From Gammaproteobacteria bacterium (GTDB taxonomy: Bacteria > Pseudomonadota > Gammaproteobacteria > JAUIAT01), in contig JAUIAT010000006.1 in NCBI GenBank assembly GCA_030425295.1, positions 9,487 to 73,486 of the forward strand: DNA of 64,000 nt. The letters run 5' to 3'. This document shows positions 40,044 to 40,148 of the stretch, piece after piece. The notes beneath the pieces were generated by a model. That model saw nothing but the letters and a program-made list of their open reading frames with translations. It was not told where the DNA came from and did not search any database. How positions within the stretch are numbered: position 1 is the stretch's first letter; each line of letters starts with the position of its first letter. The position numbers were made by a program, and so were the translations under genes.

Positions 40044-40148
40044 ACCCCTCGACTGCGCTCGGGATGACGAGCTCACACCACAAGTATGAAACTGTTTTAC
40101 ACATACTATATAGATGGCTCACCGTCATCCCGAGTGTAGTCGAGAGAT
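40044..40148. mobile_element. MITE-like family B element (~105 bp) with 25-bp terminal inverted repeats CCCCTCGACTGCGCTCGGGATGACG / CGTCATCCCGAGTGTAGTCGAGAG, in the sufB-sufC intergenic spacer.
   Basis: Inverted repeats read directly from the sequence. A related copy lies at 2382-2526. Shares the CGGGATGAC core with family A. Confidence 0.65.

Follow-up and report, generated by a model that had tools for sequence, protein, structure and literature searches.

The suf cluster of the analysed window (the whole stretch of DNA, 64,000 nucleotides, AT-rich with 37% GC) lies on the minus strand in the order Rrf2-sufB-sufC-sufD-sufS-sufU-sufA, followed by a sufT-like gene with an FeS_assembly_P domain, as assigned with Pfam. 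The spacer between sufB and sufC measures 155 nt and holds a palindrome, which a first-pass annotation had described as a MITE-like element of 105 bp (40044-40148) bounded by 25-bp terminal inverted repeats. The inverted repeat is real, and a repeat search of the window resolves it into two 31-nt arms (40039-40069 and 40123-40153), slightly wider than annotated, that are 84% complementary and lie 53 nt apart. Over 38 nt, the right arm and the flank outside it (40122-40159) show 89% complementarity to a further copy at 2446-2483. The homology thus extends to about 40159, and 40039-40159 are the best bounds of the element. The gene context, consisting of the suf cluster and a GlnII-like gene near the 2382-2526 copy, is as the annotation had it. 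All features are collected in Table 1.

Table 1. Suf genes, repeat modules and neighbouring features of the window.
Feature	Position	Strand	Remarks
Other super-family module	2393-2437	+	CGTCATCTCGACTGAAGCACCAAAGGTGCGTAATGGAGAGATC; tail-to-tail doublet with 2446-2483
Third family-B module	2446-2483	-	CCGTCATCCCGAGCGTAGTCGAGGGATCTGAATCCACA
Degenerate head fragments	2484-2526		GCGCTGGCATGACA, ACGTTCGGGATTG; after the 2393-2483 doublet
GlnII-like gene	2830-3894		Pfam
Family-A tail-to-tail doublet	35040-35105		Just 3' of the last suf-cluster gene
sufD	37835-39244	-	Pfam
Family-A head-to-head pair with four 21-nt repeats	38865-39047		In frame inside sufD
sufC	39241-40005	-	Pfam; start codon 33 nt past the hairpin base on the mRNA
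Left arm, family B	40039-40069	-	Oriented form CGTCATCCCGAGCGCAGTCGAGGGGTCCGAA on the suf mRNA-sense strand
Linker	40070-40122		53 nt between the two CGTCAT heads; partly self-complementary (AGTATG...CATACT)
Right arm, family B	40123-40159	+	Module CGTCATCCCGAGTGTAGTCGAGAGATC with tail flank AGAATACACA
sufB	40161-41600	-	Pfam; stop codon 8 nt before the hairpin base on the mRNA
YopJ-family acetyltransferase gene	42233-43267	+	Acetyltransf_14 in the Logan gene table; weak NCBIfam XopJ match
Family-A tail-to-tail doublet with three 21-nt tandem head copies	50119-50236		…TTCGGGATGACA
Family-A tail-to-tail doublet	61322-61387		
Single family-A module	63827-63857	-	

With the identical protein of the same assembly set aside, the best match of SufB is 85% identical and the next about 80%; Paracoxiella and Aquicella are among the named relatives. 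SufB similarity identifies the source organism as an uncultured Legionellales/Coxiellales-like gammaproteobacterium. Divergent from the suf regulator and adjoining it, the YopJ-family gene points to a host-associated lifestyle.

In the relatives, the sufB-sufC spacer measures 0 nt (L135/L136), 20 nt (Paracoxiella, L125), 54 nt (Aquicella, L133/L134) and 98 nt (L123), and the suf element is absent from each of them; the 98-nt spacer carries a different module, CGTCATCGCGAGG…GGCGATCC. The relative with the 85% identical SufB (L122) has yet another repeat directly 3' of sufB. The palindrome is therefore not a conserved structured spacer, an alternative that the first-pass annotation had raised. 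Judged from these sequences, the spacer is ancestrally short and the 105-bp palindrome is an insertion. Furthermore, the different repeats in L122 and L123 indicate that the site was occupied independently by different repeats, and the position just 3' of sufB appears to be a recurrent landing site. The repeats of the two relatives are located at 1973-2033 in L122 (GGTCCCTTCTCCCCACCGCGGGAGAGGGAC…) and at 2944-3041 in L123 (CGTCATCGCGAGGCCGCGTAGCGCTTGGCCGTGGCGATCC).

Related modules in the window

The 25-mer CCCCTCGACTGCGCTCGGGATGACG has one other match in the window at up to three mismatches, located at 2458-2482 with two mismatches (0.00 expected, 100 shuffles), and the 12-mer core CTCGGGATGACG occurs 13 times at up to two mismatches, against 0.96 expected. 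Both arms and the 2446-2483 copy read CGTCATCCCGAG..., with an oriented CGTCAT head directly 5' of the palindrome. These three copies constitute family B, and the tail flank of the right arm shares homology with the 2446-2483 copy on its loop side. The annotation had regarded 2382-2526 as a degenerate relative of the suf element; a good family-B module is indeed present there, at 2446-2483, but the segment is not simply a degenerate copy, as this module forms a tail-to-tail doublet with 2393-2437 and is accompanied by head fragments. Directly upstream of the doublet lies a 544-aa ORF (747-2381, plus strand) whose product has no Pfam or NCBIfam match and forms a singleton cluster in a collection of 15 billion proteins, represented by the NCBI and Logan copies of the same assembly.

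Family A comprises the second group of modules. Its head-to-head pair in sufD, together with the four 21-nt repeats, adds about 50 amino acids to SufD (SEWIPRSSRGM…(LSPEGQG)x4…SSRGLTAGS), which are without counterpart in four orthologues and are located N-terminal to the conserved SufBD_N match. The suf operon thus carries two insertions, one intergenic and one in frame, in agreement with the annotation. Families A and B have the CGTCAT head, an ATCCC/GGGAT stem and the trailing C in common, and they meet in the hybrid doublet at 2393-2483; the proposal that both belong to one super-family is borne out. The window contains 14 modules in 64 kb. A plain scan for GTCAT followed by a 6-bp stem was not enriched overall (8 versus 3.8), as imperfect stems are missed by it.

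Short-read Logan contigs of the source sample break off at repeat edges, one at 2445 immediately ahead of the family-B copy and one at 38941 within the sufD repeats, which hints at the multi-copy status of the repeats. The repeats also account for recurrent spurious peptides in annotation (…SSRAQSRDL…, …PSTALGMT…) and for assembly breaks. The module head (…CGGGATGACA) often stands in tandem copies that include about 10-20 nt of flanking sequence, as in the three 21-nt copies at 50173-50236. Tandem head duplications are also seen in other phyla (L023, L025, L151, L184 and L205), with periods of 21, 27, 34 and 111 nt. A separate family of 40-50-nt intergenic repeats (…TGCAACACCAATTGTCAACAGCCCC…), located at 10141-10182, 52130-52287, 57608-57671 and 63091-63153, has no relation to these modules; it may represent a motif common to regulatory or promoter regions.

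The family-B module in other genomes

The family-B consensus is a 27-nt oriented module, GATCCCTCGACTRCGCTCGGGATGACG, which reads CGTCAT-CCCGAGCGYAGTCGAGGG-ATC from the head. Its 21-mer TCGACTRCRCTCGGGATGACG, identical to the core of the left suf arm, has exact matches in at least 119 genome loci, and about 16 phylum-level groups are represented among the matches listed, in a scan of one genome per species with groups counted from record titles. The carriers include cultured Hymenobacter, Pseudopedobacter, Sediminibacterium and Bifidobacterium. Conservation covers exactly GATCCC plus the 21-mer, i.e. 27 nt, and falls to background level on both sides (118 of the at least 119 loci); the head reaches a conservation of at least 90% over the 118 loci among the matches listed. 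The 27-mer is identical in genomes of 37-72% GC from about 16 phylum-level groups among the matches listed (L002-L120). A literature search by sequence strings returned only an unrelated primer match. That the inverted repeat arose by chance in an AT-rich spacer, for which only the short length speaks, retains practically no probability and is ruled out: the 25-mer match arose in 0 of 100 shuffles, the hairpin fold has a z of -7.9, and at least 119 unrelated loci have the same 21-mer core.

Elsewhere, the modules stand alone, in inverted pairs or in tandem arrays with periods of 34 and 111 nt (L023 and L025). Among the matches listed, the commonest pairing has the CGTCAT heads pointing outward at a spacing of 60-100 nt (33 pairs), which is the opposite of the suf spacer. 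Three heads-inward pairs at 60-79 nt all represent the suf locus seen three times, and two further ones occur at 80-119 nt, again among the matches listed. The head-to-head arrangement with a 53-nt linker is hence rare among the loci compared.

These observations bear on the classical MITE, i.e. an insertion sequence (IS) deletion derivative moved in trans by a DDE transposase that recognises 25-31-bp terminal inverted repeats. Such an origin would suit the perfect-looking geometry of the 31-nt arms with their 84% complementarity, the small size and intergenic position of the element, the related arm elsewhere in the window and the fact that other repeats have independently occupied this spacer in relatives. 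However, no direct repeat flanks either candidate boundary, neither in the flanks ...TTTTTCTTT/TTCGGA and TCAGAA/TACACAAC nor at 40044/40148, and the 53-nt interior is single-copy within the window, with a 28-mer from it finding no match in JGI metagenome contigs. The arms are free-standing 27-nt modules that also occur in the opposite pairing and in tandem, across about 16 phyla among the matches listed. The ORFs between distant inverted module pairs encode ordinary genes, with no transposase or RAYT among the translations read by eye at 10 loci, and the gene that recurs next to the modules in other genomes encodes a GIY-YIG nuclease of 96 aa rather than a DDE transposase. In addition, none of 2.9 million viral contigs contains the exact 21-mer, and a plasmid collection gave one partial match, inside a coding gene, to a 32-nt query from the 2452-2483 copy. 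The autonomous modules, the unique interior and the lack of a target-site duplication argue against an IS-derived MITE, which we regard as unlikely, and for a REP/BIME-like modular repeat. What stands of the MITE-like element of the first-pass annotation is an inserted, repeat-derived palindrome, whereas the MITE model itself is not supported. As the annotation had stated, no transposase-like gene was seen in the window, where a minority of ORFs is annotated and the explicit search was for Ssn-like GIY-YIG genes only.

Association with single-domain GIY-YIG genes

In Neisseria, the dRS3 repeats are partly a longer oriented motif, NTS (CGTCATTCCCGCGMAVGCGGGAATCYRG), which is the oriented, longer form of about half of them (Chenal et al. 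2025, Nat Commun, PMC11893778). NTS-like 'Ssn-related motifs' (SRM) flank ssnA, a gene for a 94-aa GIY-YIG protein (cd10448), in many phyla, in an IS-like SRM-ssn-SRM layout (PMC11893778). SsnA binds the motif and cuts upstream of it, on single-stranded DNA only and on one strand only (PMC11893778). As Ssn cuts just upstream of the head, the tandem head arrays described above might be repair scars.

The published degenerate SRM pattern, HGTCWYN(0-2)YYVSBRHN(0-5)WNVSBRGN(0-2)RNCYNB (PMC11893778), matches four family-A modules (35075-35105, 38871-38901, 50154-50184 and 61357-61387), against 0.04 expected from shuffles, and family A is therefore a canonical SRM. In contrast, the pattern matches none of the family-B arms in the window, as these carry an A where B (not A) is required, in CCCGAGCG. 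The two families also differ in folding: as single-stranded DNA, a single family-A module reaches -11.9 kcal/mol (z = -5.4), whereas a single family-B arm reaches -0.4 to -2.4 kcal/mol, no better than shuffles. With a closing stem of only 5 bp around a 12-nt interior, family B barely folds alone.

In L098, a 96-aa single-domain GIY-YIG ORF is preceded, at a distance of about 40 nt, by an exact family-B module and followed closely by another super-family module; in L132, GATGTCTCGACTACGCTCGGCATGAC lies 3' of a GIY-YIG gene of the 96-aa type. A strict GIY-YIG regular expression combined with phmmer over the at least 119 family-B loci retrieved only L098 among the matches listed. The resulting one in about 155 family-B copies adjoining a GIY-YIG gene, among the genome loci listed, is what is expected with hundreds of repeats per gene, but is not proof of an association.

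The association was therefore viewed from the gene side, using 80 metagenome loci that encode relatives of the 96-aa protein. Within 130 nt 5' of the GIY-YIG gene, a GTCAT head is present in sense orientation in 54 of 77 loci (antisense, 27), and within 130 nt 3' of it in antisense orientation in 48 of 76 (sense, 23); heads occur on both sides in 36 of the 80 loci. The family-B 26-mer itself, at up to five mismatches and in the correct orientation, is found at 17/80 loci versus 0/80 after shuffling, the best copies being those of L183 (26/26) and L201 (25/26). The published SRM pattern catches 2/80 of these loci, though GTCAT-headed modules are visible there, which marks the GAGCG/GACCG-type modules as an SRM class that the pattern misses. 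In L185, a gene of the same GIY-YIG protein family is followed by TGTCATTCCCGCGAAAGCGGGAATCCAG, which equals the canonical NTS except for the first base and ties this clade to the published Ssn family.

The homologues of the L098 protein amount to 294 matches, mostly on very short contigs. Their N-termini are often over-extended and translate modules about 11 codons before the Met (…LSFRPKWRNLVS…, …HFERSAAESRNLAS…). The clade matches Pfam GIY-YIG (PF01541), has no NCBIfam match above cutoff and yields only remote UPF0213 matches in a PDB sequence search. Between the module and the start codon, a TATAAT is conserved; this suggests that the 5' module doubles as, or overlaps, a putative promoter of the GIY-YIG gene, with the module tail at the position of the -35 box. 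A conserved …ATCTGGYTTC…(N)…CTATAAT…ATG is seen between the 5' module and the GIY-YIG start in L098 (547-625), L131, L132 and L126. Within the 64-kb window, an hmmsearch with an Ssn-like profile found no Ssn-like ORF (best E = 0.78). In L127/L128, positions 1-101 show a faint Pfam match to Y1_Tnp (IS200/RAYT-type) about 900 nt upstream of the Ssn-like GIY-YIG gene, and this Ssn-like gene is present on 24 contigs.

The Y1_Tnp match, which may link the two systems that target hairpins, is one point in favour of a REPIN, i.e. a REP doublet mobilised by a RAYT (an IS200/IS605 Y1-type tyrosine transposase). Two inverted short repeats that form one long hairpin would fit it as well, as would abundance, intergenic location and alternating BIME-like orientations, which are described for REPINs (PMC3116915, PMC3337134, PMC2817692). 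However, the gene flanked by the modules encodes a GIY-YIG protein rather than a Y1 transposase, and no transposase-like ORF was seen by eye between module pairs. The head is CGTCAT and not a GTAG-type tetranucleotide, which is typical of REPs. Moreover, the identity of the module across phyla is unlike the REPs of vertically inherited REPIN-RAYT systems, which are reported to be lineage-specific (PMC3116915, PMC3337134, PMC2817692). A RAYT-driven doublet is thus improbable at the suf locus.

Transcript hairpin, origin of the element and known systems

In the suf transcript, the element forms a single 45-bp hairpin of -60.1 kcal/mol (z = -7.9). This stability, the unequal number of G-U pairs (5 on the sense strand versus 2 on the antisense strand) and the position of the hairpin, which begins 8 nt past the sufB stop and ends 33 nt ahead of the sufC start, so that the ribosome-binding region stays outside, would be expected of a native, selected suf RNA structure (a processing site, stabiliser or attenuator) whose resemblance to dispersed repeats is secondary. 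We assign this reading a low probability, as the spacers of the nearest relatives measure 0-98 nt and hold different repeats or none, and as the antisense strand folds almost as well (-53.8 kcal/mol), which is expected of a DNA palindrome. Rfam gave no match at the gathering threshold in the whole window, and only noise (E of 0.5 or above) in a permissive search of 39950-40250. No terminator-like site is present in 39800-40400; on the mRNA, GAAAAAGAAAAA comes directly after the hairpin, which lacks a U-tract and is thus not an intrinsic terminator. Three promoter-like matches were found in a promoter scan, all outside the element. Intercistronic REP copies can act as mRNA stabilisers, as in E. 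coli malE-malF, and by analogy the suf hairpin may stabilise the upstream transcript or serve as an RNase III substrate.

As a whole, the suf element is probably a head-to-head pair of Ssn-type repeats of the SRM/NTS super-family, with a REP/BIME-like organisation, inserted into the ancestrally short spacer. Each DNA strand of the element would then carry one correctly oriented module, serving as a binding and cleavage site for a cognate Ssn, putatively encoded in the source genome, whenever the region becomes single-stranded during replication, transformation or repair. We postulate that the family spreads and rearranges in a REP/BIME-like manner, via the Ssn nuclease or via recombination between copies. 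At the RNA level, the insertion would incidentally place the hairpin between sufB and sufC, where it is more likely to be a barrier to 3'-exonucleases or an RNase III site than a terminator.

A bolder, tentative possibility extends this Ssn-type repeat pair, namely that SRM-ssn-SRM is a mobile element driven by a GIY-YIG single-strand nuclease. The doublets and pairs without a gene, both the tail-to-tail ones and head-to-head ones such as the suf element, would then be non-autonomous derivatives, and the family-B 27-mer would be the recognition site of one horizontally spreading enzyme/site pair. If so, bacterial transposition or homing via single-stranded DNA would include a mechanistically new class, with insertion tolerated in operons and even in frame in essential genes such as sufD.

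With the assignment to Ssn-type repeats, a palindrome first taken as "MITE-like" would join a class that was not described until 2025, that of repeats tied to nucleases of the GIY-YIG type specific for single-stranded DNA. It would also extend the SRM class in several respects. The CGTCAT-CCCGAGCGYAGTCGAGGG-ATC motif type is missed by the published pattern although it flanks Ssn-like genes, and it recurs unchanged in many phyla. Such repeats are dense in an uncultured Legionellales/Coxiellales-like gammaproteobacterium that is probably host-associated, and its essential operon for Fe-S assembly contains copies, including one in frame in sufD. Should cleavage occur at the sites each time the DNA becomes single-stranded, recombination, transformation and the processing of suf mRNA could be influenced by where they lie.

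Among known systems, bacterial MITEs (Correia/NEMIS and MITEAba12, PMC6382973) resemble the suf element in their size of about 100 bp, their terminal inverted repeats, their intergenic location, their co-transcription and the RNA hairpins that are possible. The suf element differs from them in having no target-site duplication, no conserved interior and no known IS partner, and its 'terminal inverted repeat' is itself the repeat unit. Rickettsia palindromic elements (RPE), which are found in intracellular bacteria and consist of longer units, are capable of in-frame insertion in protein genes. The family-A pair in frame in sufD resembles them in this respect; to our knowledge, RPE are not tied to a nuclease gene. 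REP, BIME and REPIN systems with RAYT transposases (Nunvar 2010, PMC2817692; Bertels & Rainey 2011, PMC3116915) are likewise built of short palindromic units that have a direction and alternate in it, the linkers between heads differ from those between tails, and doublets form long hairpins, as in the suf element. In contrast, the head motif is another one, the partner gene is GIY-YIG and not a Y1 transposase, and the module is common to many phyla.

The NTS/SRM system is compared last. Family B departs from it in its arms, which fail the pattern and have a 5-bp closing stem with a conserved 12-nt interior, and in its 27-mer, which is identical across about 16 phyla among the matches listed, whereas diverse co-evolving motif/enzyme pairs are stressed for SRM (PMC11893778). 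The copies described here lie inside an operon, with one pair in frame in sufD, while NTS are rarely intragenic (2%, PMC11893778), and no ssn gene was seen in the 64-kb window of the source. The two have in common the oriented CGTCAT head, the ATYCC...GGRAT palindrome and the trailing C, as well as a density of the hundreds-per-genome type (14 modules in 64 kb here), a mostly intergenic location and the occurrence of inverted pairs. Family A of the window fits the published degenerate pattern. SRM-rich genomes are enriched among host-associated bacteria and symbionts (PMC11893778), and the window encodes a YopJ-family effector. Finally, in other genomes the modules flank both sides of single-domain GIY-YIG genes of about 95 aa in inverted orientation, at rates of 70% for a 5' head, 63% for a 3' head and 36/80 for both, next to 71% with any motif and 42% with both at the published ssn loci (PMC11893778).
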